Shown: piece by piece, positions 11,154 to 29,604 of the stretch
Numbering within the stretch: the stretch's first letter is position 1
How the letters are laid out: each line of letters begins with the position of its first letter
DNA from: a virus
Taxonomy: Duplodnaviria > Caudoviricetes
Length of the DNA: 64,000 nt
Direction: 5' to 3' (one strand)
IMG/VR virus record: IMGVR_UViG_3300033067_001757
Location: 1-64,000 of that record
Notes under the pieces: generated by a model
What the model saw: the letters and a program-made list of their open reading frames with translations, nothing else
What the model was told of the DNA's origin: nothing
Database searches by the model: none
Program-made: the position numbers and the translations under genes

Positions 11154-12074
11154 TCAATACCATGTATCTGCTGCTCCGGCTACAATCATTCTATCGAATA
11201 AGTCTGTAGTGAAGTTTCTTCTGTTGAGTTTATAAGTGAACTCATTGAGGTAGTTCTGTAAATAATCCTTTCCGATTGAATGATGTACACCTAAGAACAA
11301 TCTTTTAGCATTTGAAATTACTGTATGCACCCAAGGTAACTTCTTATGTGCTTCTTTAGATGGTACTATCATTGAAGTATGTTTGTCTACTACTTCATTA
11401 ATTTTTGAGAATGAACTGTATCCGTCTGTAAGTATATCTGATTCTTTACTTACCGCTTTCTTTACTTCGTAGTTGATTCCTATTGAGGTAAAATCATCCA
11501 TTGTAACCATCTTTACATATCCCATCATTCTGTTCTTCTTGTTAGGATTCTTCTGATTTGGATTAGGTGTTGATTCTACCATAACCAAAACCTTTTGCTG
11601 TTTCTTGCTACCACGGCCACGTTTCTGTTCATCTTCTGATTCGTCCTCTAAGTCTACTATTTCAAAGAAAGCATCGTCCATTTCTATGTTACCTTTTAAG
11701 TTGTATTTGCTGTCACGCTTTCCCATCGACTTTCTAACTTTTTGCATCATTAACCAAACAGGCTCATACCGTTTAACTCCTAACTGGCGTTGCATTTCAA
11801 GTGCAGAGAAAGCCTTCTTTGTAGAAGTCATTAAGTGTATACACATAAACCAGGTTCTCACAGGCATATGTGATTTTTCCATAATGGTACCTGCTCTAAG
11901 ATTAGTCCATGAACCACAATCAGCGCATTTCCAAAGTTCTTTACCGGCTAACCAGTAATGTTTCTTACCTGAACACTTTTTACATGTTATTCCTTCTGCT
12001 TCTCTTTTCTCTTTAAGATAAGTTCTGCAAGATTGTTCGTCGGGAAACCGCTCGTTGAAATTTAGTAGATTCAT
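11154..12074 (-). CDS. IS1595 (ISXO2-like) DDE transposase
   Basis: N-terminal CxxC...CxxC Zn ribbon, IEMDDAFF, ILTDG, YLQNYLNEFTYKLNRR. Confidence 0.95.
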   Translation of the reverse strand: MNLLNFNERFPDEQSCRTYLKEKREAEGITCKKCSGKKHYWLAGKELWKCADCGSWTNLRAGTIMEKSHMPVRTWFMCIHLMTSTKKAFSALEMQRQLGVKRYEPVWLMMQKVRKSMGKRDSKYNLKGNIEMDDAFFEIVDLEDESEDEQKRGRGSKKQQKVLVMVESTPNPNQKNPNKKNRMMGYVKMVTMDDFTSIGINYEVKKAVSKESDILTDGYSSFSKINEVVDKHTSMIVPSKEAHKKLPWVHTVISNAKRLFLGVHHSIGKDYLQNYLNEFTYKLNRRNFTTDLFDRMIVAGAADTWY

Positions 12075-12972: not shown

Positions 12973-13686
12973 TTAAAATTTTCTATAGCTGATCAAATCG
13001 TCACCATAGTTATCGCCTTTCGGAGACTCAACAATAAATTGAGTCTTGGTACTCTCAAGACCAATAGATTTTAACACGGCTTCTTTCTGTGCCAACGGTA
13101 ATTCGAAATCTATCGTCTTCTTTTTAAGCATTGTAAATTCTTCCATGGCCCGGAGCTGAGTCTCCTGAAATATCTCACCGACCATTACAAAATAATGATT
13201 ATAACAGAGAAACTCCAGGTTATCAAGTAACCAGTTCTTCTTATCATTATCTTTAAAATGTAGAATGATAGGTACTTTAAAGTCAAGTTGACGTCGTTCA
13301 TCGAAGCCACATTTGGCACACTTCTCAGGAAGATATCCTTCTTTAATTAATCGTCTTTTCAATTCTCTCAGTGATACAAACTTCTTCCGCATATCACCAC
13401 AGAGAATATCCATAAGACCGGTCTGCTTTGTGATGCTTATAGTTCCTTTAGAGATACCTCGCCCACCTATGTTTTTATGTTTTTCATATAAAGAGACACC
13501 ATGTTCATCTTTATACATCGAAGCATATTTTTTGTATGTGTCGAGATGTACACTGCAATACCTGGCCGCTCCTCTGTTAGAGGTCGTCTCGGACATAGCC
13601 TTTTCAATCTGTCTCTTGTCAAGGGTTTTATATACAATACCTTTATTGGTTTTCCTGGGTTTCACAGGTTTTCTTTCTTCAGCCAT
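12973..13686 (-). CDS. HTH plus degenerate HNH-like protein
   Basis: SNRGAARYCSV HTH; CAKCG ... ILHFKDNDKKN ... NLEFLCYNH. Confidence 0.75.
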   Translation of the reverse strand: MAEERKPVKPRKTNKGIVYKTLDKRQIEKAMSETTSNRGAARYCSVHLDTYKKYASMYKDEHGVSLYEKHKNIGGRGISKGTISITKQTGLMDILCGDMRKKFVSLRELKRRLIKEGYLPEKCAKCGFDERRQLDFKVPIILHFKDNDKKNWLLDNLEFLCYNHYFVMVGEIFQETQLRAMEEFTMLKKKTIDFELPLAQKEAVLKSIGLESTKTQFIVESPKGDNYGDDLISYRKF

Positions 13687-15312: not shown

Positions 15313-16152
15313 TTAGATTACGTAGACATCTTTGGTGTATTCGTGGAAATGACAAAGACCTAGCTCTTCGAATAAAATATTCTTATGCGATGGATCTTGT
15401 ACCCCACTTGTGTAGACAAAATTACACAGATTTATCAAACATTCATCAGATAGTAATAAATATTTACTTAAATCTTTAGTAGATATAGAGAGAAGCGTTT
15501 CCATATCAAACTTTATACCATCATCATATTTAATTTCCCATGGTTTTATATTAGCATGTTTCTCAACGAGTTCTCTATATATTTGTTGTTTAGCTCTAAC
15601 AGTACTCCCATAAAGGGAATCAACCTTATTCAAATTAAGAACATAGAAATTAGTTTGAGGTAATGCTGGCTTTCTATGTAATATTAAGTTTTCTTTAATA
15701 CTTCTAAGCCCACCTGATAGTTCTATTGTCTCCAAAGATATACTCGGCAGGTAATAAAAATCAGCACGTTGAAGCGGGACTGATAGCATTTTTTCGTCGA
15801 GTAACACATCATCGGCACTCTTGAACAGAAATGGATACTGAGGAAAATTATGCTTACTGTATTTTAGAAGTGATTCGTCCAGATCAATGGTACCGAACAT
15901 GTGTCCGCGATTCTTATTGATGCTCCAGCAAGTGGCCTGTGGAAACATATCTGTCCAAAGATTTTTATATTCTTTTACCAGATCTTTAGAAATCCCTTCA
16001 ACTTTGTTTAAGGCCACTGCGATGCGTGGGAAATGATCCAGGAATGGTTTATTATGTTTCAGGAAGCCGTATGTTTTGTTTAGAGATTCTTCATCTTTAA
16101 CGAGTCCTATACTACCGAACACTGAATGATCAACTAATTGTTGGAGAGTCAT
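15313..16152 (-). CDS. glycosyltransferase-like (GT-A) protein
   Basis: NRGHMFG and LFKSADDV (DD) motifs. Confidence 0.5.
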   Translation of the reverse strand: MTLQQLVDHSVFGSIGLVKDEESLNKTYGFLKHNKPFLDHFPRIAVALNKVEGISKDLVKEYKNLWTDMFPQATCWSINKNRGHMFGTIDLDESLLKYSKHNFPQYPFLFKSADDVLLDEKMLSVPLQRADFYYLPSISLETIELSGGLRSIKENLILHRKPALPQTNFYVLNLNKVDSLYGSTVRAKQQIYRELVEKHANIKPWEIKYDDGIKFDMETLLSISTKDLSKYLLLSDECLINLCNFVYTSGVQDPSHKNILFEELGLCHFHEYTKDVYVI

Positions 16153-16175
16153 ATATCATAACCTTTATTGGATAG

Positions 16176-16206
16176 CAAAGGTAGTGAAAGTTCTACATAT
16201 AACAAA
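16176..16206 (-). promoter_or_regulatory. Bacteroidota sigma-A type promoter
   Basis: TTTG-N19-TACCTTTG. Confidence 0.7.
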
Positions 16207-16224
16207 ATAAAGTTAGAGAGGTAG

Positions 16225-16310
16225 CGGAGGTAACAGGAGTTCAACCTGTACGACTTTTTAGGGTCCTGGCGATTTTCAAGATCGTGTACCTCTGTCAACT
16301 GGGTACCTCC
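16225..16310 (-). tRNA. tRNA-Ser(TGA)
   Basis: Acceptor GGAGGTA/TACCTCC, G73, anticodon arm CGAT-CT TGA AA-ATCG, long variable arm; atypical D arm. Confidence 0.8.
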
Positions 16311-16316
16311 GTATAA

Positions 16317-16817
16317 TTATTTATCTTTATTTGCCGAATGTGAATGAAGTATAATAAAGGCTACTGAACCTTTAGAAGAAATATTAAATTTTTCCATTAT
16401 CTGTCGATAGGTATGACCTTCTTGACGATATTTAATAATATTATCATGGTCATGTACCTTTATGTAAGAGGTAGCTAACATAGCAGCCTGAAATCTTAAC
16501 TCCTTACTTTTATCCATCATATTATCTTGATGTGTTCCAATTCCAATATTCCAATCATAATTACATAAACTATCGCAATTCAAATGCCTTATCTCCATAT
16601 CTGCTTCAAAAATCTTATCTCCATATTTTTGATATCCAACCAATCTATGGATTGGAATCGCATATGTACTTCCATTCATTCTAATACTAAATTTCCTATA
16701 ACCTCTATTTGTTACAGTTCCTTTAATAATCTTTCCCTTTGGTGAATATGTAACATTTTCAATCACTCTGTAACCTCTATTATAGACAAATAATAATGAT
16801 TCTTTTTGTTTACTCAT
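16317..16817 (-). CDS. HNH homing endonuclease
   Basis: IHRLV ... IRHLNCDSLCN ... NIGIGTHQDN; C-terminal HTH. Confidence 0.88.
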   Translation of the reverse strand: MSKQKESLLFVYNRGYRVIENVTYSPKGKIIKGTVTNRGYRKFSIRMNGSTYAIPIHRLVGYQKYGDKIFEADMEIRHLNCDSLCNYDWNIGIGTHQDNMMDKSKELRFQAAMLATSYIKVHDHDNIIKYRQEGHTYRQIMEKFNISSKGSVAFIILHSHSANKDK

Positions 16818-16898
16818 TTAGTTCTTTATTAGTACATATATAAATATGTACCAATGCGGTTCAAAACGATTCGAACCAGAACTTTTTTATAGAACTTG

Positions 16899-16986
16899 CG
16901 GAGAACAGAGTAATCGAAACTCACCCAACTGAATGGGTTCTCGTTTAGCAAACGAGCGGGGATACCACTTCCCTCCTTTACTCTCC
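16899..16986 (-). tRNA. tRNA-Ser(GCT), probable 8/4 fold
   Basis: CTCGT-TT GCT AA-ACGAG, long variable arm, G73, acceptor GGAGAGTA/TGTTCTCC, T stem GAGT/ACTC. Confidence 0.85.
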
Positions 16987-16992
16987 AAATTG

Positions 16993-17076
16993 TAACCCAG
17001 GTAGTATTCGAAACTACTCACCCAAATGGGATGTGATTTACAGTCACACGCACCTCTCCTACTGTGCCGCTGAATT
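16993..17076 (-). tRNA. tRNA-Tyr(GTA)
   Basis: TGTGA-CT GTA AA-TCACA, long variable arm, TTCGAAT T loop. Confidence 0.88.
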
Positions 17077-17082
17077 ATACTG

Positions 17083-17169
17083 TAGCGGTAACCGGCTTCG
17101 AACCGGTACGGACATTGCTGTCCAAGAGTGTTTAAGACTCTCATGTGCTTCCAATTTCATCATACCGCT
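17083..17169 (-). tRNA. tRNA-Leu(TAA)
   Basis: AGCGGTA/TACCGCT, AGAGT-CT TAA AC-ACTCT, long variable arm, GGTTCGAAGCC. Confidence 0.92.
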
Positions 17170-17174
17170 ATTAG

Positions 17175-17251
17175 TAGCCCGAGTCGGAGTCGAACCGACA
17201 GACGATCAATACATCCTAAGTGTATCCGCTTTCCCGTTTGCGTACCAGGCC
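17175..17251 (-). tRNA. tRNA-Leu(TAG), short variable arm
   Basis: ATACA-CT TAG GA-TGTAT, GTCGGTTCGACTCCGAC. Confidence 0.9.
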
Positions 17252-17253
17252 AT

Positions 17254-17288
17254 AAAAACAAAAAACCCTCACCGGTTAAATGAGGGCT
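17254..17288 (-). terminator. attenuator terminator A
   Basis: AGCCCTCA-TTTAACCGG-TGAGGGTT then TTTTGTTTTT, ending 2 nt before tRNA-Leu. Confidence 0.85.
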
Positions 17289-17322
17289 AAAAAAAAAAAT
17301 ATCTCTTAGTTTAGTACATACC

Positions 17323-17391
17323 TCATCCCCAATTATCGTCCAGATAACTTAACGAACTCAAGGAGAGATATAGATTAATATTGTGTTTCAT
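17323..17391 (-). CDS. leader peptide A, MKHNINLYLSLSSLSYLDDNWG (Leu/Ser/Tyr sensor)
   Basis: ATG..TGA, 22 aa, 11 consecutive L/S/Y codons; lies between promoter and terminator. Confidence 0.85.
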   Translation of the reverse strand: MKHNINLYLSLSSLSYLDDNWG

Positions 17392-17395
17392 AATG

Positions 17396-17427
17396 CGAAG
17401 GTAGCTATAATTATTGAGACTACCAAA
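17396..17427 (-). promoter_or_regulatory. Bacteroidota sigma-A type promoter of tRNA array A
   Basis: TTTG-N20-TACCTTCG, 4 nt before the leader ATG. Confidence 0.7.
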
Positions 17428-17499
17428 TATAAATATACAGAGGTCTACAAAAACGATTAAAATAATTACCATTGTTCATCCCAGTTTTTATTTGCATGT

Positions 17500-17931
17500 T
17501 TGTATAATTTATGTGATAATAAATATTGGAGATGTACAGAAAATATCTATTTTTGTAAAATGAAATTATTTATAATTATAATAATCACTATTCTCGTGTT
17601 GATGGTATTACCCATTATTATCCATGAACAGTATTATGGAGAACCGGTTTCATATGGTCATTATTATCTACAGAAGAACTATAAAGACGCTTCTGCGTTG
17701 TTTACTATATTGACAAAAAAAGATACCGATATATTTCTATGGTGCTGTGATTGTATTTTATTCTATGCAAAAAAACTAAATGTATCATATGAAGAATTGA
17801 ACATATATGTTTTCATCATATGGCAACCATATCTGATAATTTTATTTGGATACTTGTATATATCAGTATTGATTAAAAACATCAAACTTCGACGAAAGTT
17901 GCATCAAACAATTCCAGTAACAAATCCGTAA
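17500..17931 (+). CDS. membrane protein (true start may be the later Met, MKLFIII)
   Basis: Two TM segments, SYEELNIYVF motif. Confidence 0.6.
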   Translation: MYNLCDNKYWRCTENIYFCKMKLFIIIIITILVLMVLPIIIHEQYYGEPVSYGHYYLQKNYKDASALFTILTKKDTDIFLWCCDCILFYAKKLNVSYEELNIYVFIIWQPYLIILFGYLYISVLIKNIKLRRKLHQTIPVTNP

Positions 17932-19288
17932 GATTTTCTCGTATTCTTACAACTGGTTTACCATTTTTCATTTTAACTACAATTTTACCGTCTGCACCAA
18001 CGGTATAAACAGGTTTAGCTACATGTGATCCATGTTTAGCCGACTTGTCATCATCGTCTTCTTTAGATTTAATATTAGAAACAGTATCTACTTTTTTCGA
18101 TACATCTGGTGTAGGAGAAGATCCTGTAGTTGTGACTGATTTATTTTTGTCTGGTTTAGATTGTTTACTGGTAGCTATATCTCCAAAAGAATCTTTTGAT
18201 TTTTTGTGTTTAGTACCTTCTTTACCAGCCATCATATTAGACGAAAGAGTGATAGTGATCTTTTTTCCTTTAGATGAGGTGTCTGGATTTTCAAGATAAG
18301 CAATATGTCTTACGGCCTGATATGGTGTAGCATTATCTTTTTTCATAACATACACAATTTTCTCCATATAATTCATATCTTTTAGATCATCTGATGTCAC
18401 TGTCTTAGAAGCACCTTTTGAAAAATCATATGTATCTGTAATTGTGTATGAACTATCTGCGTTTTTTTGATACGTAAACCTTCCCAATGTAGTTGCTACA
18501 CCGAATGCATCATTTGATGTAAGAGTTTTAAATGCTGTTGTGAGTGTACTTGGTCCGACATTATTTGCATATATATTCGCAACATCTCCACCATAATCTT
18601 TATATTCGGTAGCACCACGATTAACTTTACCTGTACGCTTAATGGCATTATTTATAACATCTGCCATTATTTTCTTCTGAGCCTTACTAAAATCTTTACC
18701 TGATAAGTCTTTAGTCAAATATAACTGTGCAACGTTTGGAAAAGCCTTTCTGATATACGAAGAAACACCGGAAGCTATTTTATCACCTATACCAGAATTA
18801 GCTTTATTTGTAGAATCAAATTCAGCTTTACCGGCTTTGCCAGTACTATCTATAGTTATTTTATTACCCGTGGTTGAAAATACATCTCCATTACTGATGC
18901 GGCAATTAAAAATGGCCAATTTTTTAGCAGCGGTAGCAGCTTTTTTAAAGTCTGTAGGATTAGATTTTTTAGCAATATTCTTCTTTACCGTTATATGAAA
19001 ATCTTTCTTTTTATCAACTTTCTGTTCCATATCCTTGTAAAGAGAATCGATATCCTGTGGACTCATTGAATTAAGCTTGTTACCAAAATTAGTCTTGCTT
19101 ATATTTTCTATGTCCTGTTTGTGTGAATTATCCATCTGAGATAACTTCACTCCTCCTATAGATAAAGAACTTAAAAACAAGCTTAGTCCGGAAAAAATAT
19201 TTAAAAATAATCCTTCCTCAATATTTTCTTCATTTTCCGGTATTTTTAGTAAATCTAATTCTTCAAGTAATTTAGTAAATGTTTGCAT
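17882..19288 (-). CDS. Lys/Ser/Asp-rich protein, possible virion internal protein
   Basis: 468 aa ORF; N-terminal LLEE motif; C-terminal motif shared with 14430-15230. Confidence 0.75.
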   Translation of the reverse strand: MQTFTKLLEELDLLKIPENEENIEEGLFLNIFSGLSLFLSSLSIGGVKLSQMDNSHKQDIENISKTNFGNKLNSMSPQDIDSLYKDMEQKVDKKKDFHITVKKNIAKKSNPTDFKKAATAAKKLAIFNCRISNGDVFSTTGNKITIDSTGKAGKAEFDSTNKANSGIGDKIASGVSSYIRKAFPNVAQLYLTKDLSGKDFSKAQKKIMADVINNAIKRTGKVNRGATEYKDYGGDVANIYANNVGPSTLTTAFKTLTSNDAFGVATTLGRFTYQKNADSSYTITDTYDFSKGASKTVTSDDLKDMNYMEKIVYVMKKDNATPYQAVRHIAYLENPDTSSKGKKITITLSSNMMAGKEGTKHKKSKDSFGDIATSKQSKPDKNKSVTTTGSSPTPDVSKKVDTVSNIKSKEDDDDKSAKHGSHVAKPVYTVGADGKIVVKMKNGKPVVRIRENLTDLLLELFDATFVEV

Positions 19289-19327
19289 ATATAATATAAA
19301 TATAAGAAATATCCCAAATTAATTCGG

Positions 19328-19399
19328 GGTATAAGGTCGGTAACGGTCCGACTTCTTCTCCTTCACAGGGAGACGCTTCACTTTAAAGCTTCAAACACC
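19328..19399 (-). tRNA. tRNA-His(GTG)
   Basis: TCTCC-CT GTG AA-GGAGA, G-1:C73; two T-T mismatches in the acceptor; T loop ACCGTTA. Confidence 0.8.
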
Positions 19400-19409
19400 A
19401 TGTTTCAGA

Positions 19410-20090
19410 TTATTTCCTTTTGAAACGTTGCCAATAACCTTTAGGTGGTTTATCAACGTTTAATTTATGATATCTTCTTCGAACAGTATTCGCTGAAACC
19501 TTATACATCTTTGCAATATTATTTAATGAAAACTCCCATATTAATTTACTCAATTCTTCATCTGAAATGATAAATTTTGGTTCATATATTCGCTTACTCT
19601 TATTATCAACCTTGATCTTTTTATTATTTCGTCCGGCGAAAGTATTAGTTTGTCTGTGGCAGTTAGGGCAAAGAAATCTCAAATTTTCAATTTCACAATT
19701 AGTCCAATCCCCATCTATATGATCAATATCTAAAGTTATATATTCATCTAACCATTTTGACAAAGTACATACACCACACTTATATTCAAAACCTTTCTCC
19801 AGCAAAGCTCGTTTTAATGTTTTATGGTTCACTCTATATTCCTTATTCCTTGTGAGAATATCATCCGCTTGTATCCTTTTTTGATAATTAGGATTTCTTT
19901 TTCCGGCATATACACTTTGTCCTAAAAAATGTGAAACATCTATATCATATTCTTTTATACGATTTCTAATTAATTCATAACTACCACCAGATGCTCTGGC
20001 TCCCAATCTTCTGCAAACATCGGCATATGTTATAGATTCTTTCACAACCGATTCTATAAGTTCTCTTGTATAAGTCCTCTTAGTTGACAT
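19410..20090 (-). CDS. HNH homing endonuclease
   Basis: CGVC ... LDIDHIDGDWTN ... NLRFLCPNCH. Confidence 0.92.
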   Translation of the reverse strand: MSTKRTYTRELIESVVKESITYADVCRRLGARASGGSYELIRNRIKEYDIDVSHFLGQSVYAGKRNPNYQKRIQADDILTRNKEYRVNHKTLKRALLEKGFEYKCGVCTLSKWLDEYITLDIDHIDGDWTNCEIENLRFLCPNCHRQTNTFAGRNNKKIKVDNKSKRIYEPKFIISDEELSKLIWEFSLNNIAKMYKVSANTVRRRYHKLNVDKPPKGYWQRFKRK

Positions 20091-20159
20091 TATTATATTT
20101 ATAATAAATATCAGAGAGGTATAAGCGAAATTTAAAAAGAATGCACTTATACATTATAG

Positions 20160-20230
20160 ATGTCCCGCTTCGAATTGAACGAAGATCACAAGATTCAAAT
20201 TCTTGTATAATACCATTATACCACAAGACA
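20160..20230 (-). tRNA. tRNA-Gln(TTG)
   Basis: TGTCTTG/CGGGACA, CAAGA-AT TTG AA-TCTTG. Confidence 0.85.
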
Positions 20231-20236
20231 ATTTTG

Positions 20237-20308
20237 AGCCCAGTACCGGTCTCAAACCGATCTCTTCTGATTACAGGTCAGTTGCTTCATCAACAAAGCT
20301 TACCAGGC
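20237..20308 (-). tRNA. tRNA-Thr(TGT)
   Basis: GCCTGGT/ACTGGGC with C2-G71; CTGA-CC TGT AA-TCAG (C33). Confidence 0.78.
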
Positions 20309-20314
20309 TAAAAG

Positions 20315-20386
20315 TAGTACCACTTGGAGTCGAACCAAAACCTTCTGTTCTTCAGACAGACGCGCAGACCACTACGCCATAGCACC
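20315..20386 (-). tRNA. tRNA-Phe(GAA)
   Basis: TCTGT-CT GAA GA-ACAGA, GGTTCGACTCC. Confidence 0.9.
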
Positions 20387-20392
20387 ATATAG

Positions 20393-20465
20393 AAGTGGAA
20401 GAGGAACTCGAAGCCTCGCGTACCGGGGTTGCAATCCGGAGCATTACCATCTTTGCTATTCCACT
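20393..20465 (-). tRNA. tRNA-Cys(GCA)
   Basis: AGTGGAA/TTCCACT, U73, CCGGA-TT GCA AC-CCCGG. Confidence 0.87.
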
Positions 20466-20471
20466 ATGTTG

Positions 20472-20542
20472 CAAGGGATACCCGAATCAAACAGGTACCA
20501 ACTGGGTTGGAAGCAGTTGTACTATCATTATACTAATCCCCC
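20472..20542 (-). tRNA. tRNA-Trp(CCA)
   Basis: GGGGGAT/ATCCCTT, G73, ACTGC-TT CCA AC-CCAGT. Confidence 0.82.
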
Positions 20543-20550
20543 GTAAAAAT

Positions 20551-20643
20551 AACACACAAGGCCAACGACTCTCTCGTTGTGGATTCGGTAGAGCTTAGTA
20601 ACCTCATGCTTACATAAGTCGTATGCTCTCACCTTGTATGTCC
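20551..20643 (-). ncRNA. unidentified three-way-junction RNA inside tRNA array B
   Basis: Closing stem ACATACAAGG/CCTTGTGTGT; inner stems AGAGC/GCTCT and CAACGA/TCGTTG. Confidence 0.5.
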
Positions 20644-20646
20644 TCG

Positions 20647-20720
20647 TCGAGATTTAAGGCATCGAACCTTACTGATATCTTGGTCCCAAACCAAGTGACC
20701 CACCTTGAGTCCGAATCTCG
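20647..20720 (-). tRNA. tRNA-Pro(TGG)
   Basis: CGAGATT/AATCTCG, CTTGG-TT TGG GA-CCAAG. Confidence 0.9.
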
Positions 20721-20727
20721 ATATAAT

Positions 20728-20757
20728 AAAAAACCCCGAAACATTTCTGTCGGGGCT
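20728..20757 (-). terminator. attenuator terminator B
   Basis: AGCCCCGA-CAGAAATGTT-TCGGGG then TTTTTT, 7 nt before tRNA-Pro. Confidence 0.85.
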
Positions 20758-20785
20758 ATTAAACTTATGTTAGATTATAGATGTT

Positions 20786-20881
20786 TTACCATCCCATTCC
20801 ATCATACATATGTTTGTCCCCACCGAACGGTTGTGTCGGCCAGAAGGTAAATTGACATGTATGTGTAAATGTGTTGTTCAT
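20786..20881 (-). CDS. leader peptide B, MNNTFTHTCQFTFWPTQPFGGDKHMYDGMGW (Thr/Phe/His/Cys/Gln/Trp/Pro sensor)
   Basis: ATG..TAA, 31 aa, A-rich upstream context, 16 consecutive codons from the seven amino acids of array B. Confidence 0.88.
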   Translation of the reverse strand: MNNTFTHTCQFTFWPTQPFGGDKHMYDGMGW

Positions 20882-20896
20882 TGTTTTGTTTTTTAA

Positions 20897-21105
20897 AAGA
20901 TAAACAGCCGTCAAATCCCGCTGAAGTTATCTATTGTTAAAGTGTAACAGGGATCGCTTCTTTCAGCGTCAGACATACAAGATGTTCTGTTACAAAGAGT
21001 AATCGTGATTCGTGGTACACTTTTAAGTGCCTTCGCTCAAACGTCCTGGACGTACAATTACTAAAATTTAGATAATCACCAATACGTTACCGGTGAGGTT
21101 ATCTG
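20897..21105 (-). ncRNA. unidentified multi-domain structured RNA upstream of leader B
   Basis: Four consecutive stems: AGATAA..TCACC/GGTGA..TTATCT, AGTAATTG/CGATTACT, TGTAACAG/CTGTTACA, AGATAA/TTATCT; no ORF in the track. Confidence 0.45.
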
Positions 21106-21122
21106 TTAATAAATATCAAAGA

Positions 21123-21362
21123 CTATTGTAAAACGGTTATTGCTCTTGCGTACCTACCATAATTATCGTTTACAGAACCGGTTCGGAATGCTATATTCTT
21201 TTCACCGAGTCCAACCTCGTATTCTTTTAAAGACATTGTCAGTTCTTCAAATATCCGTTTCTGTCTCTCAGGATTTAAATACATAAAAACATAATATGTT
21301 TTACAATGATCACACTGTTCTGGACACTTACTATTTCCTTCGATATCACGCTGGCATTTCAT
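21123..21362 (-). CDS. hypothetical Cys-rich protein
   Basis: 79 aa, directly after the promoter at 21372-21403. Confidence 0.55.
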   Translation of the reverse strand: MKCQRDIEGNSKCPEQCDHCKTYYVFMYLNPERQKRIFEELTMSLKEYEVGLGEKNIAFRTGSVNDNYGRYARAITVLQ

Positions 21363-21371
21363 AATATGAAG

Positions 21372-21403
21372 CGAAGGTAGTATTTAATTAGAGAACTTCC
21401 AAA
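21372..21403 (-). promoter_or_regulatory. Bacteroidota sigma-A type promoter
   Basis: TTTG-N20-TACCTTCG. Confidence 0.65.
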
Positions 21404-21404
21404 T

Positions 21405-21695
21405 TTATTTTCCATTCATCTTGCCCAGATATACACCGAGACTATCCTTCAATTGCAGACTTTGTACCGTCAGGTCATTAATCTGGAGACTGTAGATCAG
21501 TACAGAATCAATCTTCTGCGCTTTACCGGCATCGATCATCAGCTTCGTCTTATCAATAATTTGGAATGCGTTTTGAGTCAGAGCCAGGGAATAATAATTT
21601 ACCTGCTGCAGGTTGTATGCACCTTGTGTTGAGGATAGTACTGAGCATGACCCAAGGATGAATGGGATTACGAGTAATGTGATGAGTTTTTTCAT
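21405..21695 (-). CDS. lipoprotein
   Basis: MKK + hydrophobic stretch + LGSC lipobox. Confidence 0.75.
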   Translation of the reverse strand: MKKLITLLVIPFILGSCSVLSSTQGAYNLQQVNYYSLALTQNAFQIIDKTKLMIDAGKAQKIDSVLIYSLQINDLTVQSLQLKDSLGVYLGKMNGK

Positions 21696-21786
21696 AGATG
21701 AAAATTTGTATTAATATTTGTATATATAAATATCAAGGAGTCTATATTCTGGCAGCAGAATGGGATTTGTGTCGGAGATTAGTATG

Positions 21787-21859
21787 TGGAAAACAGTTGA
21801 TTCGAACAACATCTCCCGGTTTGCAAAACCAGTGCTTTTGCCAATTAAGCTATGCTCCC
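21787..21859 (-). tRNA. tRNA-Ala(TGC)
   Basis: G3:U70, CTGGT-TT TGC AA-ACCGG; bulged acceptor with a 4-bp T stem. Confidence 0.85.
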
Positions 21860-21865
21860 ATTATG

Positions 21866-21938
21866 TTGAAGAAGTGAATTATGCTATCACAACCTCTGAA
21901 GTATCAGTTCAGCGCTCTGACTGTTGAGCTATTCTTCA
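21866..21938 (-). tRNA. tRNA-Ile(GAT)
   Basis: TGAAGAA/TTCTTCA, CTGAA-CT GAT AC-TTCAG; atypical T loop. Confidence 0.85.
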
Positions 21939-21945
21939 ATGTATG

Positions 21946-22018
21946 TTGTCCCTACCGGTTATGATCCGGTTACCTAATGATTATGAGTCATTTGCTCTAC
22001 CGATTGAGCTAAGGGACT
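21946..22018 (-). tRNA. tRNA(CAT), Ile2 (lysidine) or elongator Met
   Basis: AATGA-CT CAT AA-TCATT; lacks the three initiator G-C pairs. Confidence 0.85.
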
Positions 22019-22068
22019 GTAAAACAGAATAAAGAGTTGCGCATCGTTGAGAGGTTCTTACTCTAATG

Positions 22069-22142
22069 CGGACTATACCGGTAACAATCCGGTCATCTCT
22101 CCCGTGACAGGGGAGCGTCTTCATCGTGCAGACTCATAGTCC
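22069..22142 (-). tRNA. tRNA-Asp(GTC)
   Basis: GGACTAT/ATAGTCC, G73, CTCCC-CT GTC AC-GGGAG. Confidence 0.88.
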
Positions 22143-22147
22143 TTATG

Positions 22148-22220
22148 TATCCCCAATGGAATTCGAATCCATATCATCTCATAGAAAGTGAGATATCCTA
22201 AGCCATTAGACGATGGGGAC
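22148..22220 (-). tRNA. tRNA-Glu(TTC)
   Basis: GTCCCCA/TGGGGAT, TCTCA-CT TTC TA-TGAGA. Confidence 0.88.
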
Positions 22221-22289
22221 TGGTTGGCATCCTAAACTCCCGTGCAAGGGATAAACCTGGCCATTTAGGTTTTGTTCTACCGGCAACCA
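22221..22289 (-). ncRNA. unidentified long hairpin abutting tRNA-Glu
   Basis: Nested stems TGGTTG/CAACCA, CCTAAA/TTTAGG, TCCC/GGGA. Confidence 0.35.
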
Positions 22290-22306
22290 CAAGTGTCTGG
22301 CACCAG

Positions 22307-22519
22307 CTACTTCCATTGTGTCTTTCTGTTATGCTTCCAGGACTTGTATTGTCTCACCTGGTACATCATAAGCTCTTTACGTTTCCATCTCCTTACTGGG
22401 CTGCTACGGTAGTAATTTACACCTTCGTCCCAGTATCTGTCCATGAACTTATCATTAGTCACAATCTTATATTCCTTTCTGCAGGTTGTGTGACTACTGA
22501 TACTTCTGTGTGGTTTCAT
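22307..22519 (-). CDS. small basic protein within the tRNA array
   Basis: 70 aa, Arg/Lys/Trp-rich, ends KSWKHNRKTQWK. Confidence 0.7.
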   Translation of the reverse strand: MKPHRSISSHTTCRKEYKIVTNDKFMDRYWDEGVNYYRSSPVRRWKRKELMMYQVRQYKSWKHNRKTQWK

Positions 22520-22537
22520 TGTTGTAGGTTTTAGTAC

Positions 22538-22564
22538 CTACAAGAAATCGTATGTTTTTTTCAT
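22538..22564 (-). CDS. 8-aa upstream ORF MKKTYDFL
   Basis: Its TAG lies in the 5' arm of hairpin TTGTAGGT-ACTAAA-ACCTACAA just upstream of the next ATG. Confidence 0.5.
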   Translation of the reverse strand: MKKTYDFL

Positions 22565-22627
22565 AACGTAAATAATGTTTTACATGGTATACCCATCTGT
22601 GTAAAAGATATTTTACAAACATATCCA

Positions 22628-22897
22628 TTATTCTAAATCTGGATACTCACTATAAAAACTAAGCTCATACATATTTTCACCGGTTTTTATCTGTCTGTAA
22701 TATAAATAATCAGGTGATATACCTTTATAATTAACCCTGTTAGCATAAACAGAATCCTTTACGAGACCTGTTTCGGTTATGTTCATATTTTCCAGATACT
22801 GTTTTTCATTACGAAATTTTTCAATCACATCAGGATTAGCACTCTTTAAAAAACTCGCATTGGCCAACGTTGAATCAATCTTTTCAAGTCTTGTCAT
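22628..22897 (-). CDS. hypothetical protein; N-terminus resembles the ValRS C-terminal tRNA-binding coiled coil
   Basis: LEKIDSTLANASFLKSANPDVIEKFRNE resembles the ValRS motif KLxNxxFxxxAPxxVVxKE. Confidence 0.5.
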   Translation of the reverse strand: MTRLEKIDSTLANASFLKSANPDVIEKFRNEKQYLENMNITETGLVKDSVYANRVNYKGISPDYLYYRQIKTGENMYELSFYSEYPDLE

Positions 22898-22980
22898 TGT
22901 GAAATAAATTTAAAAGAAGCTACCAGAGCTACGTGTTTCTTTTTGTTCCCGTTCCTGGTCTTCGCTAAAGCTTCTCTAAT

Positions 22981-23028
22981 TGGAGCCGAGGGGCAGTGTG
23001 CCCACTGTGCATTCCCTTTCAACTCGGC
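22981..23028 (-). ncRNA. tRNA-like minihelix ending in encoded CCA
   Basis: GCCGAG ... CTCGGC T CCA, 48 nt, no anticodon arm. Confidence 0.4.
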
Positions 23029-23608
23029 ATGTAAATTTTAGGATAAAGATAATCCTCTCGAACCCCTACCAAATCCAATATTTTTACCACAAAATGTATC
23101 CGTTTGTGTGTGACAATTTGGACATAATAATCGAACATTATCAGGAAAATTATTACCGGAATCACCATCTACATGATCAACCTGTAAAGTGATAGGCTTT
23201 TCATTCCATTCAAAAATTCCACAAGATTCACAGTTATATCCTCGTTCATAAGCAATTAGTTTCCGTAATGTATTCCGTTTATTAATCTGCCCATTTTTAT
23301 ATTTAACTAATGATACAGTTTCATGCATATGAATTTTATGACATTTAACACTGCAAAATTTATTGCTTTTATTTGACTGGGAGACACATGTTTTTCCGCA
23401 GATTATACAATCGAAAAATTTCTTTGGTTTCTTATTTTGTTTGCTCGCACAACTTCTTGAACAATGTTTTGGAAATTTACTCTTCTCTAACTGTGTTGGT
23501 GTTAAAGATACGCTATACTCTTTGTTACATCCTTTACAATGGCAACTATATACCCCTTTGCACAAACTTTTTAGAGAACTTATCAAATTTATCGTCTTTT
23601 AGTGTAGA

Positions 23609-23899
23609 TTGGTACTTTCAAAAAATAAATACTGCTATATGAAAGTTCTAAAGGAGTATATTACTTATGAAGGTAAAAACTTTGGTGAATCAATTAACGA
23701 TGGTATTGCACAAGTTGAGATTATTAAATTAAGTGAAAAGCTTTCAAGTTTTACCAAAGATATATTTAATTCAAAAACTGGTTTTATTGATATAAAATCA
23801 AATGGTGCAATTGAAATTGAAGACTTTCCCGATGATCTGCAAAATTCTATCATAGACTATCTTAAAATTTCCAAGGATAATCATTATACGAAACCTTGA
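23609..23899 (+). CDS. IS passenger, hypothetical protein
   Basis: ORF inside the TIRs; probable start at MKVLKE. Confidence 0.55.
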   Translation: MVLSKNKYCYMKVLKEYITYEGKNFGESINDGIAQVEIIKLSEKLSSFTKDIFNSKTGFIDIKSNGAIEIEDFPDDLQNSIIDYLKISKDNHYTKP

Positions 23900-24037
23900 G
23901 CCTTATATCTTTATCATATAAAATTCTAACAATCTCCCACAAAGACGTTTTTTGTTCTTTTGTTAAGTGACAAGTAACTTCAATGGGTATACCGATAACT
24001 TTGGTTACTTTGAATTCTTCGGTGTTTATCATGAATA

Positions 24038-24238
24038 CTAATTAAGTAAATTTACTCCACCGTTACGGTAAATAGAAGAATCAAATTCTTTAATACAATC
24101 TCTTATCATATTAATTTGAGCATAATCGGATGTTTCCATTGAAATAATCTGATTAATTAAAGAACAACACTTTTTTGATTTTGATTCCAAACTTTGCTTT
24201 ACCGAGACTATATCCTTTTTTACATTCTCTAATTCCAT
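24038..24238 (-). CDS. IS passenger, hypothetical protein
   Basis: 66 aa, preceded by the ATATTTATA motif. Confidence 0.5.
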   Translation of the reverse strand: MELENVKKDIVSVKQSLESKSKKCCSLINQIISMETSDYAQINMIRDCIKEFDSSIYRNGGVNLLN

Positions 24239-24294
24239 ATACTTTGTTTTAGTATATATAAATATATAGAGGTAGTGATTATCAAATTAAAATA

Positions 24295-24492
24295 TCAGAA
24301 AGCGTATATGTAAATAATTATAATCATACCGATTATAGTTGCAAAATTCATCCACACCATTATAGACTTCTCTTTCATCTTTTCTTTACCACTAATAGCA
24401 TTTCTGGTATTTTTTAAAGCTTCTTTCAAAGAGGTCATTCCGTAGAATATCAGACTTATTACTATTAATAAACCGATGAGAATATATGGCAT
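24295..24492 (-). CDS. IS passenger, two-TM small membrane protein (paralog of 10962-11153)
   Basis: Shared GKEK-containing loop between two TM helices. Confidence 0.6.
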   Translation of the reverse strand: MPYILIGLLIVISLIFYGMTSLKEALKNTRNAISGKEKMKEKSIMVWMNFATIIGMIIIIYIYAF

Positions 24493-24549
24493 GGTAAAGA
24501 ATTGGATAATTAAAATTGACGGTACTGATATTTATATGAAAGTACAAAT

Positions 24550-24750
24550 ATGATAACCTCTTTTGATGAATTAGAATCCCAAGGCGCTAAATTCTATTAT
24601 GACCCGCATCAAGATAAGGAAATTGACCCACCTCACTATTATGCAATTGATAATAAATGTTGGACACTTATTAATATAGATGAAGATGGAACTCCGGAAT
24701 ACATGGGAATACAATTTGAATTGATCGCGTATCCAGAATTATTTACTTAG
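24550..24750 (+). CDS. IS passenger, small acidic protein
   Basis: 66 aa, preceded by GATATTTATAT. Confidence 0.55.
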   Translation: MITSFDELESQGAKFYYDPHQDKEIDPPHYYAIDNKCWTLINIDEDGTPEYMGIQFELIAYPELFT

Positions 24751-24973
24751 TTTTTTCAACTTCACTCATTGAGTATTCGACAAATTCGTTTTTAGTATTT
24801 TTAAATACATGTTTGTATACTTTTTGAAATTGCTTTTTGGATTGGTCTACATAAATTAAAATTTCACCTGTTTCTTTAAGTTTAAATTTATCACCTGCTT
24901 TAATAACAGTCTCTGTAGATTTTACAATGTTTACTTTCTTGCCAGCCCTAATACGTATTTTAAATGTTTAAGA

Positions 24974-25714
24974 TTAATCCTTAACGCAACGAACAGAAAA
25001 GCCCCAGGTCTTTTGAATCTCGTCCGCGTAGATGGTGCCACCGCCATAGTTTATGTAGTGGTACCAGGCGTAGTTAAGCAAGGTATACTCCGTAGTACTC
25101 CACCAGAAACCTGTGATACCAGCACCGTAGAAAGATTCGATGTAATAATCATTGAAGTGATGGTAGCCACCCGGAAGCGCTGTGAATCCGCTGCTGTTAG
25201 TAGCATCGGCGTTAGGGGCATACCATAAACCGGTCCCAGCTTCTATGGTTCCGGTTGATTTCATCTTGCCACCCGCTACTGCATAGCCGCCTAAATAAGT
25301 AGATAATGTTGTCCATTCTGCCTCACTTGGTACATGCCAACCTTCAGGGGCTAGTCCCCTTGGATCATGTACAGCATACCAGTTGTATAACTTGCCATAA
25401 ACAGCACCCGTGGCAGAATCGTTATTGTACCAGCACCATGCACCGGTAGTTAAGGAAGCCCATTTGTGACGGTCTTTTACCTGTGGTATCTTGTCCCCAT
25501 TTCTGTAACGGGTTACGTCAAGGTTCTTTTTCATCCAAACTTGAGTACCTATTCTAACAGTGTTACCAGCAAGAACTTTATTATCGTTAAGTACATCTTG
25601 GCTTATACTTTCACTTGTAATACCTGAAGTTTGAACGGTGCTGTTTTCTTTTTTACAGGAGATTGATAGTGATATCAGCAAAGCTGAAATACTTATTGTG
25701 ATTATTGTTTTCAT
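24974..25714 (-). CDS. FISUMP (Fibrobacter succinogenes major paralogous) domain lipoprotein
   Basis: SISC lipobox; IGTQVWMKKNL, YGKLYNWYA, PEGWHVPS..EW, SGFTALPGG, GFSVRCVKD. Confidence 0.92.
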   Translation of the reverse strand: MKTIITISISALLISLSISCKKENSTVQTSGITSESISQDVLNDNKVLAGNTVRIGTQVWMKKNLDVTRYRNGDKIPQVKDRHKWASLTTGAWCWYNNDSATGAVYGKLYNWYAVHDPRGLAPEGWHVPSEAEWTTLSTYLGGYAVAGGKMKSTGTIEAGTGLWYAPNADATNSSGFTALPGGYHHFNDYYIESFYGAGITGFWWSTTEYTLLNYAWYHYINYGGGTIYADEIQKTWGFSVRCVKD

Positions 25715-25744
25715 TGTAGGTGATATTTATATAAAATAAAGTTT

Positions 25745-25948
25745 ATGATAAAAATAAAGTTTAATGTAGACAAGAAAAAAGAGGGGGATTTAAATGAGAA
25801 AGTTACAATGTCCGTAGAAACTAATGAAATAGAAAATTCTTCTGATACGGCATTGATTGAAAGTATAATACAATGGTCAGCAGAACACCTTGAATATTTA
25901 CAGAAAAAAATAAGTCAATGGAATGATGTTTTAAATCAACCTCGTTAA
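25745..25948 (+). CDS. IS passenger, hypothetical protein
   Basis: 67 aa, preceded by GATATTTATATA. Confidence 0.55.
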   Translation: MIKIKFNVDKKKEGDLNEKVTMSVETNEIENSSDTALIESIIQWSAEHLEYLQKKISQWNDVLNQPR

Positions 25949-26247
25949 ATTGTAGGCAGCATAATACCATTTTCAGACAAGAAATCTGTAAATTTTTTGA
26001 TATGGAAAAAGCCACCACTGACATATAAAAAGTAAACATCCAAGTCGTCTTTGGAAAATCTATCCGAGGTTACTTTTTCATCTTTCAAATTCAATAAAGC
26101 GAGTTCATCAATGTACTTTGCGAACAAATCACTTCTGGACGGAGCTATTATTAGTCTTGCAATCACTAAATTTTTGTTTACACCAACTCTAGTTGAAACC
26201 AGACTTCTTAATTTTTCTTTTATTGATTTTGCTTGTTCTAAGTTCAT
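25945..26247 (-). CDS. IS passenger, hypothetical protein
   Basis: 100 aa, convergent 4-nt overlap. Confidence 0.55.
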   Translation of the reverse strand: MNLEQAKSIKEKLRSLVSTRVGVNKNLVIARLIIAPSRSDLFAKYIDELALLNLKDEKVTSDRFSKDDLDVYFLYVSGGFFHIKKFTDFLSENGIMLPTI

Positions 26248-26359
26248 TTTAAAGGATTTAGTAGCACAAGATACAAAAATCTATTAGACATACTTTAACA
26301 ATATTAGGTAGTACTTTGAACAAAACATGTCTATCTTTGTGTAACAAATAAAGAGATAT

Positions 26360-27286
26360 ATGTTCAACTCATTTAAGAATCTTACAGAAGTTATACTCCA
26401 CTTTTCTACTGATAAAGTTTGCAGGGAATTCTTAGAGACCAAGAGATGGAACGGTACTCCGACCTGTCCTCATTGTGGTTGTGATAAGTGGTATAAGTTG
26501 AATGATGGTAAAACATACAAGTGCGGTAACAAAGAGTGTTACAAGAAATATACCGTTACGGTAGGAACGATCTATGAGAATACAAACGTTCCTCTTACTA
26601 AATGGTTTGCTGCTGTTTATATAATCACCGCTCATAAGAAAGGAATAAGCAGTATCCAGTTGTCTAAAGACATTGGTGTTACTCAAAAGACTGCCTGGTA
26701 TATGAATCATAGAATCAGACAGATGGTTGGAGAAAGGCATCCAGAAGCATTAGAGAACACTGTAGAAGTGGATGAAACCTATGTAGGTGGGAAGATGAAG
26801 AACAAACACAAGAAGGTTAGAGCGGAAGCACATGCTAACAATATAAGCCATACAGATAACAAGACAGGTGTAATGGGTTTCTTGGAAAGAGGAGCAGGTG
26901 TACGGTTAAATGTTATTGATAAAACCAAGACATTTAAAGAAATGGTTAAGGGTAATATTGCTTTAGAAGCTATTGTAATTACAGATAGCCTAAATGCTTA
27001 TACCGGCCTTGCTAAGGAGTTTAAAGGTCATGAGGTGGTTAACCATAGCGAAGATGAATATGTACGTGGTGAGTTCCATACAAACACTATAGAGGGCTTC
27101 TTTTCATTCCTAAAGAGAAGTATCTACGGTTGTTACCACAATGTAAGTCCTAAGCATTTACAGAGATATTGTAATGAGAATAGCTACCGGTACAATACAA
27201 GAGATTTGAAAGATGGTCAGAGATTTGAGATAACTTTGTCTAACATTGAAGGAAGACTTCCATATAAAACTCTAATCGGTAAATAA
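26360..27286 (+). CDS. IS1595 (ISXO2-like) DDE transposase
   Basis: CPHCG..C Zn ribbon, KKGISSIQL, VEVDETYVGG, ITD, HTNTIEGFF, HLQRYCNE..YRYN. Confidence 0.96.
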   Translation: MFNSFKNLTEVILHFSTDKVCREFLETKRWNGTPTCPHCGCDKWYKLNDGKTYKCGNKECYKKYTVTVGTIYENTNVPLTKWFAAVYIITAHKKGISSIQLSKDIGVTQKTAWYMNHRIRQMVGERHPEALENTVEVDETYVGGKMKNKHKKVRAEAHANNISHTDNKTGVMGFLERGAGVRLNVIDKTKTFKEMVKGNIALEAIVITDSLNAYTGLAKEFKGHEVVNHSEDEYVRGEFHTNTIEGFFSFLKRSIYGCYHNVSPKHLQRYCNENSYRYNTRDLKDGQRFEITLSNIEGRLPYKTLIGK

Positions 27287-27460
27287 TGGCAAAGGCAAAG
27301 AAGGCAACAAAGCCTAAAAAGATAAGACAGGAGAACTATGAAACTAAGTTAAAGGTGAATGCATCTTTTGAAGATGTGATAGGATGGAGTGTAGAAGGTA
27401 ATCCTAAGCCAAAGACTAAGCCATTGAAGAAGTAGACTGTAGATATGTTTAAGAGATCAT

Positions 27461-27486
27461 TCCCGCTTTATGAGCGGGTTTTTTTG
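27461..27486 (+). terminator. intrinsic terminator after the transposase operon
   Basis: CCCGCT-TTATG-AGCGGG followed by a T run. Confidence 0.75.
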
Positions 27487-27531
27487 TTTCCTGCAGTGTA
27501 GATGTTGTGAATTTAGTTATATTTTAGATTC

Positions 27532-28020
27532 ATGAATACTAAACGAATAATTGCTATTAGAAAATTAGACAATGTTTTAAAAATTCTATCAGATTCAACC
27601 GAAGCCGAAATTCAAAATAATGTTCCGATTGCCATACTTGACGTTTTTGAAATTAGTGAATTTTATAAAAACGCTCATAAAACTGAATTGAAAAATCATG
27701 AATTTAATCTTATTATAGATAAGTTATTAAAGGATGACTATATATTCAAGGAACAAATTGATAAATCACAACCACCACGATTTGGTATTAACTATATTGG
27801 TTATATATTTAACTCTGAAGGTGGTTATGAACAAAAAATGATTAATGACGACGACGAAAATACGCGGATGGATAAGATAGAAGAGAATCAAAAATTCCAT
27901 AGGCGTGCCCTGACTTGGCTAACATCTCTCGTCGCTGTCGGGACGTTAATAGCTGCGATTTATTATTCAGTAGAACTCTTGAAATATTTTCATGTTTTAC
28001 CTGATCCTTTTCATTGCTGA
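27532..28020 (+). CDS. IS passenger, protein with a C-terminal TM helix
   Basis: 162 aa, possible winged-helix N-part, hydrophobic C-terminus. Confidence 0.65.
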   Translation: MNTKRIIAIRKLDNVLKILSDSTEAEIQNNVPIAILDVFEISEFYKNAHKTELKNHEFNLIIDKLLKDDYIFKEQIDKSQPPRFGINYIGYIFNSEGGYEQKMINDDDENTRMDKIEENQKFHRRALTWLTSLVAVGTLIAAIYYSVELLKYFHVLPDPFHC

Positions 28021-29320: not shown

Positions 29321-29321
29321 T

Positions 29322-29520: not shown

Positions 29521-29523
29521 GTG

Positions 29524-29594: not shown

Positions 29595-29604
29595 TTATAC
29601 TTAG

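Follow-up and report, generated by a model that had tools for sequence, protein, structure and literature searches.

The window analysed here is the first 64 kb (64,000 nucleotides, nt) of a 187,243-bp contig from an uncultured phage (IMG/VR record IMGVR_UViG_3300033067_001757). All tRNA genes of this phage lie on the minus strand, at 16.2-29.9 kb, in arrays that are interrupted by HNH endonuclease genes. Here, we describe leader A, a 140-nt region that stands before an array of Leu, Tyr and Ser tRNA genes and that is a candidate transcription attenuator. A promoter-family match, a short open reading frame (ORF) and a terminator all lie inside 175 nt; the unit holds no other gene, and its upstream neighbour is on the opposite strand. 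The comparison covers two distinct versions of the leader, that of the window and that of the ENA contigs L013/L022 (hereafter L013), which were found through a 468-amino-acid neighbour protein that is 93% identical. The ORF, its codon run and the array behind them are as follows.

17391-17323, minus strand: leader ORF of 22 codons plus TGA, encoding MKHNINLYLSLSSLSYLDDNWG (ATG at 17391, TGA at 17325-17323; frame kept in L013)
17373-17341, minus strand: putative sensor run of 11 consecutive Leu, Ser or Tyr codons, LYLSLSSLSYL, the longest such run in six frames
17174-17251, minus strand: tRNA-Leu(TAG) (ARAGORN at default settings and Rfam, 44.6 bits)
17082-17169, minus strand: tRNA-Leu(TAA) (ARAGORN at default settings and Rfam, 43.5 bits)
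16992-17076, minus strand: tRNA-Tyr(GTA) (ARAGORN at default settings)
16898-16986, minus strand: tRNA-Ser(GCT), with an atypical D region (ARAGORN at relaxed threshold only)
16317-16817, minus strand: HNH endonuclease gene between two Ser tRNA genes (Pfam HNH_3; absent at this place in L013)
16226-16310, minus strand: probable tRNA-Ser(TGA), a fifth class II tRNA (Rfam tRNA-Sec model, 21 bits, E 0.043)

The run reads CTA TAT CTC TCC TTG AGT TCG TTA AGT TAT CTG and thus contains five different Leu codons, three different Ser codons and two TAT codons. This diversity of Leu and Ser codons within 11 positions had been pointed out in a first-pass annotation of the window, which had also placed the ORF, the run, an octamer over the stop codon, its partner in the terminator and the promoter box; each was found where it had been put. 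In the six frames of the whole genome, no other run of Leu, Ser and Tyr codons is as long, the next longest having 9 codons. With a six-frame frequency of 0.242 for these three amino acids, runs of at least 11 codons are expected 0.046 times genome-wide and 1.7e-5 times in the 140-nt leader. The amino acids of the run are exactly the three isotypes of the downstream array (Leu twice, Tyr once and Ser twice). Leader A therefore has clustered codons that match the genes to be regulated, a short ORF between a promoter-family match and a terminator, and an intrinsic terminator between that ORF and the first tRNA gene, all of which are features of leader-peptide attenuators.

The array had been described as holding class II tRNA types only, namely Leu, Tyr and Ser; the same was found here, and Ser(TGA), beyond the HNH gene, was added as a fifth member. 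In this candidate, the 7-bp acceptor stem is perfect, the anticodon loop reads CTTGAAA and the variable arm is long; it has no ARAGORN call in the window. In L013, Ser(TGA) is called at -ps85 and lies 12 nt after Ser(GCT), with no HNH gene between them. Since Ser(TGA) follows Ser(GCT) in this way in L013, the native array is best read as Leu(UAG), Leu(UAA), Tyr(GUA), Ser(GCU) and Ser(UGA), which would be all the class II tRNAs of the phage and nothing else.

We also considered whether the run reports on individual isoacceptor tRNAs, as the first-pass annotation had suggested. By anticodon of the array, three run codons belong to UAG and two each to UAA, GUA, GCU and UGA, and all 11 are readable once Ser(UGA) is counted, on the assumption that U34 reads all four codons of a box. 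Isoacceptor monitoring is therefore compatible with the data in that every run codon has a cognate tRNA in the array, but it lacks statistical support: relative to the codon usage of the phage, five distinct Leu codons out of five have p = 0.064, at least three distinct Ser codons out of four have p = 0.73, and the presence of all four Leu and Ser anticodon classes at least twice has p = 0.16. Leader codons this rare have p = 0.062. In addition, two of the run codons are lost in L013. The tests of codon diversity and rarity, with p only about 0.06, were set aside as support.

A second leader in the same genome, leader B (20881-20786), contains TFTHTCQFTFWPTQPF, a run of 16 codons, all of them for T, F, H, C, Q, W or P. 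The genome has no longer run of this seven-letter set (6e-5 expected here), and leader B precedes a terminator and tRNAs for Pro, Trp, Cys, Phe, Thr, Gln and His. Leader B thus follows the plan of leader A, a mini-ORF that spells the isotypes of the array behind the terminator, and the two runs have no amino acid in common. Since two leaders with non-overlapping sets each equal the isotypes behind them, chance is very unlikely as their source. In L013, His directly follows Gln, which indicates that the HNH-like gene at 19410-20090 is an insertion; the native arrays are thus split by two HNH genes, one between Ser(GCT) and Ser(TGA) and one between Gln and His, both absent there in L013. Array B also has a 103-nt gap (20543-20645, minus strand) between tRNA-Pro and tRNA-Trp, in which no tool called a tRNA.

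These codon runs bear on a simpler explanation, in which the terminator is an ordinary or leaky one that keeps tRNA transcription at a constant low level, the ORF is untranslated or without effect, and the run is a coincidence or a by-product of a pyrimidine-rich hairpin arm. A terminator directly before a tRNA array and without a leader ORF does occur in an unrelated phage contig (L002). However, only 1.7e-5 such runs are expected in the leader, the run matches the isotypes of the array exactly, and the coincidence would have to recur at leader B with seven other amino acids. We consider this explanation unlikely.

Alternative helices in leader A

Four pairing regions and a T tract can be recognised in the RNA of leader A.

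17372-17358, minus strand: region 1 (TATATCTCTCCTTGA), the 5' arm of the predicted anti-antiterminator hairpin, codons 8-12 (minimum-energy fold; sequence and pairing kept in L013)
17332-17317, minus strand: region 2 (TTGGGGATGAGGTATG), from the final ORF codons over the stop codon to the bases after it, which can pair with region 1 or region 3 (100% conserved in L013)
17288-17279, minus strand: region 3 (AGCCCTCATT), the 5' arm of the terminator (2:3 pairing in masked nascent folds)
17273-17264, minus strand: region 4 (GGTGAGGGTT), the 3' arm of the terminator (hairpin of -12.6 kcal/mol; terminator scan)
17263-17253, minus strand: T tract of the terminator, which ends 1-2 nt before tRNA-Leu(TAG)

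Folded from the AUG to the T tract, the whole leader RNA has -37.5 kcal/mol (z -3.81), and none of 200 shuffled sequences was as good. Its dominant element is the hairpin formed by regions 1 and 2 (-20.6 kcal/mol, z -3.45), which was likewise matched by 0 of 200 shuffles. The terminator (17288-17264 with the T tract) is a 10-pair hairpin (z -3.5) that is conserved in L013 and that was the second-best terminator-like site in 15 kb in the terminator scan. Region 2 can pair with region 3 as well: GGATGAGG at 17328-17321 includes the stop codon, CCTCATTT at 17285-17278 lies inside the 5' arm of the terminator, and the two can form 8 pairs, of which 2 are G-U. Within region 3, the segment CCUCAUUU would pair with GGATGAGG in the antiterminator, and GGAUGAGG also has CCUCAUUU as its partner. 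The pairing between the stop-codon octamer and the terminator arm had already been described and is present, but the strongest structure, the 1:2 hairpin, had been missed. With this hairpin, the folds give leader A the classic 1:2, 2:3 and 3:4 layout of an attenuator. RNA that is not translated would terminate, because the 1:2 hairpin locks region 2.

In order to follow the effect of a ribosome, a 30-nt footprint (-15 to +14 around the A site) was assumed and masked, and the nascent RNA was folded until the 3' arm emerges. When no ribosome is masked, regions 1 and 2 pair and region 3 stays free. Three stalled states were folded, with the A site at run codon 9, 11 or 14, and in these the 2:3 pairing forms; by footprint arithmetic, region 1 is covered and the core of region 2 is free for A sites at codons 7-17. 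A ribosome whose A site holds the stop codon covers region 2, and region 3 again stays free. Folding with ribosome-footprint constraints, which had been proposed with the first-pass annotation, thus agrees with its reading that a stall in the run frees region 2 for region 3 and that a ribosome at the stop codon masks region 2. The regulatory codons are part of the 1:2 hairpin, and footprint masking switches the fold in the way expected of an anti-antiterminator. Masked folds of leader B show the same kind of switch, although leader B differs from leader A in that its stop codon lies 30 nt beyond region 2, it has no leaderless promoter geometry, and the two share no sequence homology.

Taken together, these results suggest, with a probability that we put at about 0.7, that leader A is a ribosome-mediated leader-peptide transcription attenuator that controls the class II tRNA array. 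This is the mechanism that had been put forward before, a sensor of Leu, Ser and Tyr decoding whose antiterminator overlaps the stop codon, and the codon run, the folds, the masking and the relative all support it. A polymerase of the host type would start on the A of the AUG at 17391 or right beside it and make a leaderless mRNA, and a ribosome would translate the 22-codon leader while the polymerase proceeds. When Leu, Ser and Tyr codons are decoded fast, the ribosome would reach the UGA and cover region 2 (17332-17317); without a ribosome, region 2 would be locked to region 1 (17372-17358). In either state, the terminator hairpin (17288-17264) would form and transcription would stop 1-2 nt before tRNA-Leu(UAG). 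Slow decoding at any of the 11 run codons would leave a stalled ribosome over region 1 and region 2 free, and the free region 2 would pair with the 5' arm of the terminator (GGATGAGG with CCUCAUUU) in a kinetic competition between helices. The terminator would then be blocked, and transcription would read through into Leu(UAG), Leu(UAA), Tyr(GUA), Ser(GCU) and Ser(UGA). The signal could be a low amount of these tRNAs or their low charging, and the outcome would be a negative feedback by which class II tRNAs are made on demand. How the run, the stop codon and the three helices are placed relative to each other agrees with control by a ribosome and argues against a terminator of fixed strength.

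Predicted promoter and the related leader

Upstream of the leader ORF lies a match to a promoter family, which consists of two elements.

17424-17427, minus strand: -33 element TTTG, part of TTTG-N20-TAnnTTTG (identical in L013)
17396-17403, minus strand: -7 box TACCTTCG, consensus TAnnTTTG with one mismatch (a perfect TACTTTTG in L013)

A genome-wide scan found 20 perfect copies of TTTG-N19-21-TAnnTTTG compared to 3.8 expected, an excess of about five-fold, and the copies share flanks (ATATTTGGT...TCTCA...) and spacer words (TCTCA, GTTCT). Examples on the minus strand are found at 8550-8519, 16206-16176, 30157-30126 and 58549-58518, and many genes 3' of these copies start with AAAGGT(C/T)ATG. 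The same scan showed no promoter-family match between the terminator of leader A and the tRNAs, the first of which lies 1-2 nt past the T tract. The arrangement TTTG-N20-TACCTTCG has the -33 TTTG, the 19-21 nt spacer and the -7 TAnnTTTG of a Bacteroidota sigma-A promoter, and in L013 the match is perfect.

In Flavobacterium psychrophilum, the sigma-A box TAnnTTTG occupies positions -12 to -5, leaderless transcripts make up 5.5% of mRNAs, and candidate leader-peptide attenuators have been reported for amino-acid operons (PMC9723704). In leader A, TACCTTCG at 17403-17396 sits 4 nt before the ATG, and the predicted transcription start is A17391, the A of the leader ATG, because of this position rule of -12 to -5 (PMC9723704). 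The mRNA of leader A is thus probably leaderless, which remains the best prediction, as it was before; it draws on membership in the promoter family, on the -12 to -5 rule and on the same spacing at another gene of the window. That gene, at 17560-17931 on the plus strand, is divergent from leader A, encodes a hydrophobic protein of 123 codons and is also predicted to be leaderless, since a perfect -7 box stands 4 nt ahead of its ATG; the 4-nt geometry between box and ATG is therefore used by a real gene. The 3' end of this gene overlaps the end of the convergent gene for the 468-amino-acid protein, and the gene pair is kept even in relatives with 40% identity (L014-L017).

A 25-nt motif, TTTTTGTAG-N6-GTATATTTAT, is common to the regions upstream of leader A and of a third leader, C (17451-17429 and 30137-30115, minus strand). 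It was dropped as the promoter of leader A once the TTTG-N20-TAnnTTTG family had been seen. The copy at C includes a functional-looking -7 box (TAGCTTTG), and at A that box has decayed; the A copy looks like a decayed C-region promoter together with an extended -33 context. This suggests that the control regions of A and C arose by duplication.

Between the window and L013, the promoter region is 93% identical and codons 1-6 of the ORF are 72% identical, with free changes of amino acid; the changes in codons 3-7 are H>Q, N>H, I>T and L>I. Apart from CTA>ATA and an in-frame loss of AGT, the run is identical, and these 3 nt are the sole indel of the ORF. Codons 18-22 carry 2 changes, both synonymous. 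Regions 1 and 2 are identical to those of the window, region 2 being kept though adjacent third codon positions changed, while the spacer is only 50% identical. The terminator stems are also identical except for one base at the top of the stem, which turns U-G into C-G; a loop change in L013 brings the 2:3 pairing to 10 bp, which at -16.6 kcal/mol (z -2.9) is stronger than the L013 terminator at -15.0 kcal/mol. Such a pattern would be expected if selection acts on the frame, on the run and on the four pairing regions. A terminator of fixed strength would not lead one to expect that the relative keeps the frame and that the changes near the stop codon are synonymous only.

The tRNA genes behind the leader differ in how far they are conserved. 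The Leu(TAG) and Leu(TAA) genes of L013 are only 51% and 64% identical to those of the window, with the anticodons kept, and it looks as though two Leu tRNA genes were replaced with the anticodon retained. The flanks of the Leu genes are 90-100% identical, and L013 (2341-2566, compared to 17251-17082 in the window) has about 55 nt extra between them. tRNA-Tyr(GTA) is 96% identical, with a compensatory change in the variable arm, and in Ser(GCT) the anticodon stem is changed on both sides with the pairs kept.

The comparison also bears on whether the ORF encodes a functional micropeptide, either of 22 amino acids or in a 49-amino-acid in-frame form that starts at 17472 and has a hydrophobic N-terminus; the hairpin would then be the terminator of this gene, and the tRNAs would come from read-through or from a separate start. 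In the window and in L013 alike, the 49-codon frame (17472-17323) is uninterrupted, and the C-terminal DDNWG is conserved with synonymous changes only. However, the upstream extension overlaps the promoter-family elements, and its changes between the two phages are almost all non-synonymous (8 amino-acid changes and 1 synonymous, as read from the alignment). In addition, codons 3-7 of the short form change freely, the conserved stretches are the RNA pairing regions, and no promoter-family match offers the tRNAs a start after the terminator. A micropeptide gene thus appears quite improbable.

Several observations weigh against attenuation by a ribosome. Taken alone, the 2:3 pairing in the window has about -11 kcal/mol (z -0.9), and 34 of 200 shuffles were as good. 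Full-length folds with a masked ribosome still form the terminator; because the terminator wins in these folds, read-through would rest on kinetic competition, as in trp. With two distinct sequences there is no covariation, 0 of 31 pairs having changed on both sides. Both this and the unexceptional 2:3 pairing of the window would suit a fixed terminator. The relative has ATA (Ile) in place of CTA at the first run codon and has lost one AGT, so single run codons appear to be dispensable. The -7 box of the window has one mismatch. Both Ser(GCU) and Ser(UGA) fall below the default thresholds of tRNA finders, and Ser(UGA) of the window has an odd T loop (TTGAACT). Lastly, the PolB relatives in IMG/VR, G001 (52%) and G004 and G005 (33%), have no homologue of attenuator A, and their tRNA regions are organised differently.

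Other comparisons were negative. IMG/VR searches with the 468-amino-acid neighbour protein, the PolB protein and a tRNA-Leu 24-mer gave no relatives, and distant homologues of the 468-amino-acid protein (40-45% identity) have no tRNAs nearby. The GT17 neighbour protein led to distant phages only, of which L002 has terminators before tRNAs and no leader ORFs. A 22-nt tRNA-Tyr pattern, used on viral and metagenome contigs, matched unrelated phages only. A DNA search of GenBank phages with this region found no match. L105 (IMGVR_UViG_3300032236_001391, 45800-49700), from a PolB relative with 52% identity, contains at least 5 tRNA-like genes at 1930-3400, which have a common 5' part (AGTCAGGTGGCGGAATTGGTAGACG) and 3' part (CAGGTTCGAATCCTGTCCTGACTAC) around long, differing middles. 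Their full length is 90-135 nt, and they may be tRNAs that contain introns or are expanded in some other way.

Known leaders, phage setting and meaning

Leader A was compared with known RNA leaders. Rfam covariance models for the T-box (RF00230) and for the Leu, His, Thr and Trp leaders gave no match at 16000-31000 with E up to 1, where only tRNA-type matches were found. Leader A would thus work like the amino-acid leaders yet is, by sequence, a member of no Rfam leader family. These results also bear on the idea of a switch made of RNA only, in which the helices respond to a protein, a small molecule or the direct binding of a tRNA and translation is irrelevant. Leader A does have strong, conserved alternative helices, and T-box leaders are a known route for the sensing of tRNA. 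However, no T-box, riboswitch or leader family matched in 16000-31000 (cmscan, E up to 1), no specifier loop or T-box motif was seen in the sequence or the folds, and the in-frame run of Leu, Ser and Tyr codons, the kept frame and the stop codon inside region 2 would be left unexplained. We regard this idea as very unlikely.

In trpL, hisL, leuL and pheL of E. coli and Salmonella, a short ORF rich in regulatory codons contains region 1, termination is the default and a stalled ribosome leads to read-through. Leader A resembles them in that region 2 can pair with region 1 or 3 and in that 3:4 is an intrinsic terminator, and it differs in that it would control tRNA genes and not biosynthetic enzymes, is borne by a phage and is probably leaderless. 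Multivalent attenuators are also known, ilvGMEDA sensing Ile, Val and Leu and thr sensing Thr and Ile. Leader A likewise mixes codons in one leader, so that a shortage of any would relieve termination, but Leu, Ser and Tyr have no metabolic link, and the set is that of the isotypes encoded downstream, the class II group. The pheM leader of pheST, the genes for phenylalanyl-tRNA synthetase, belongs to a synthetase gene on a host chromosome and senses one amino acid; leader A would share with it the ribosome-mediated attenuation of a component of the translation machinery, but would control the tRNAs themselves. The T-box RNA binds uncharged tRNA directly and without translation. Leader A is similar to it in making a choice between terminator and antiterminator that would report on tRNA status, and is unlike it in that the sensor is an ORF and no T-box match is present. 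A full-text literature search found no description of leader-peptide attenuation of tRNA genes. What is new in leader A is the target (tRNA genes), the carrier (a phage), the class II isotype set and the probable leaderless start.

The phage itself is distant from described ones, as its family-B DNA polymerase (PolB) has at most 35% identity to any GenBank phage, the nearest being T4-like cyanophages. The PolB ORF (58568-60865, minus strand) has 765 amino acids from its ATG, compared to about 860 in homologues of the clade, and this gap fits a gene start about 98 codons upstream at a non-standard start codon. HNH-type endonuclease genes occur across the tRNA region at 16317-16817, 19410-20090, 23038-23586, 28589-29134 and 12973-13686, all on the minus strand and all five with Pfam or PHROG HNH matches. 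The Bacteroidota-type promoters suggest a Bacteroidota host, and so does an IS1595 transposase with 98% identity to copies in Bacteroidota-like contigs. This transposase (11154-12074, minus strand, 306 amino acids) lies inside the phage genome, its 98% identical copies are on ENA and Logan contigs (L004-L007), and beside these copies lie genes for an integrase and for Gad2-like defence. The transposase also hints at a recent transposition into the phage genome. The 306-amino-acid protein had been considered as a synteny anchor and was dropped, since it is the IS1595 transposase and has matches in bacterial contigs.

Why phages carry tRNA genes is debated, and the proposals include codon compensation, the replacement of degraded host tRNAs and escape from tRNA-cleaving defences. 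To our knowledge, the regulation of phage tRNA genes is essentially undescribed. A wider and more tentative proposal is that the phage runs a demand-driven and nearly complete tRNA supply. The sets of leaders A and B do not overlap, and leader C, as assigned in the first-pass annotation, would take the other ten amino acids, so that all twenty would be covered. Leader A would be leaderless and would resolve isoacceptors with at least two codons for each of its five anticodons. It would turn on the class II tRNA array once host tRNAs run low, to which host shut-off or anticodon-nuclease defences, for instance, could lead.

If leader A acts as proposed here, this compact element of about 140 nt might be used in hosts of the Bacteroidota type as a natural reporter that shows how available individual tRNAs are, and ribosome-mediated attenuation would extend from amino-acid and synthetase genes to tRNA genes. 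The phage would then measure the decoding speed of defined codon sets and top up exactly those tRNAs.

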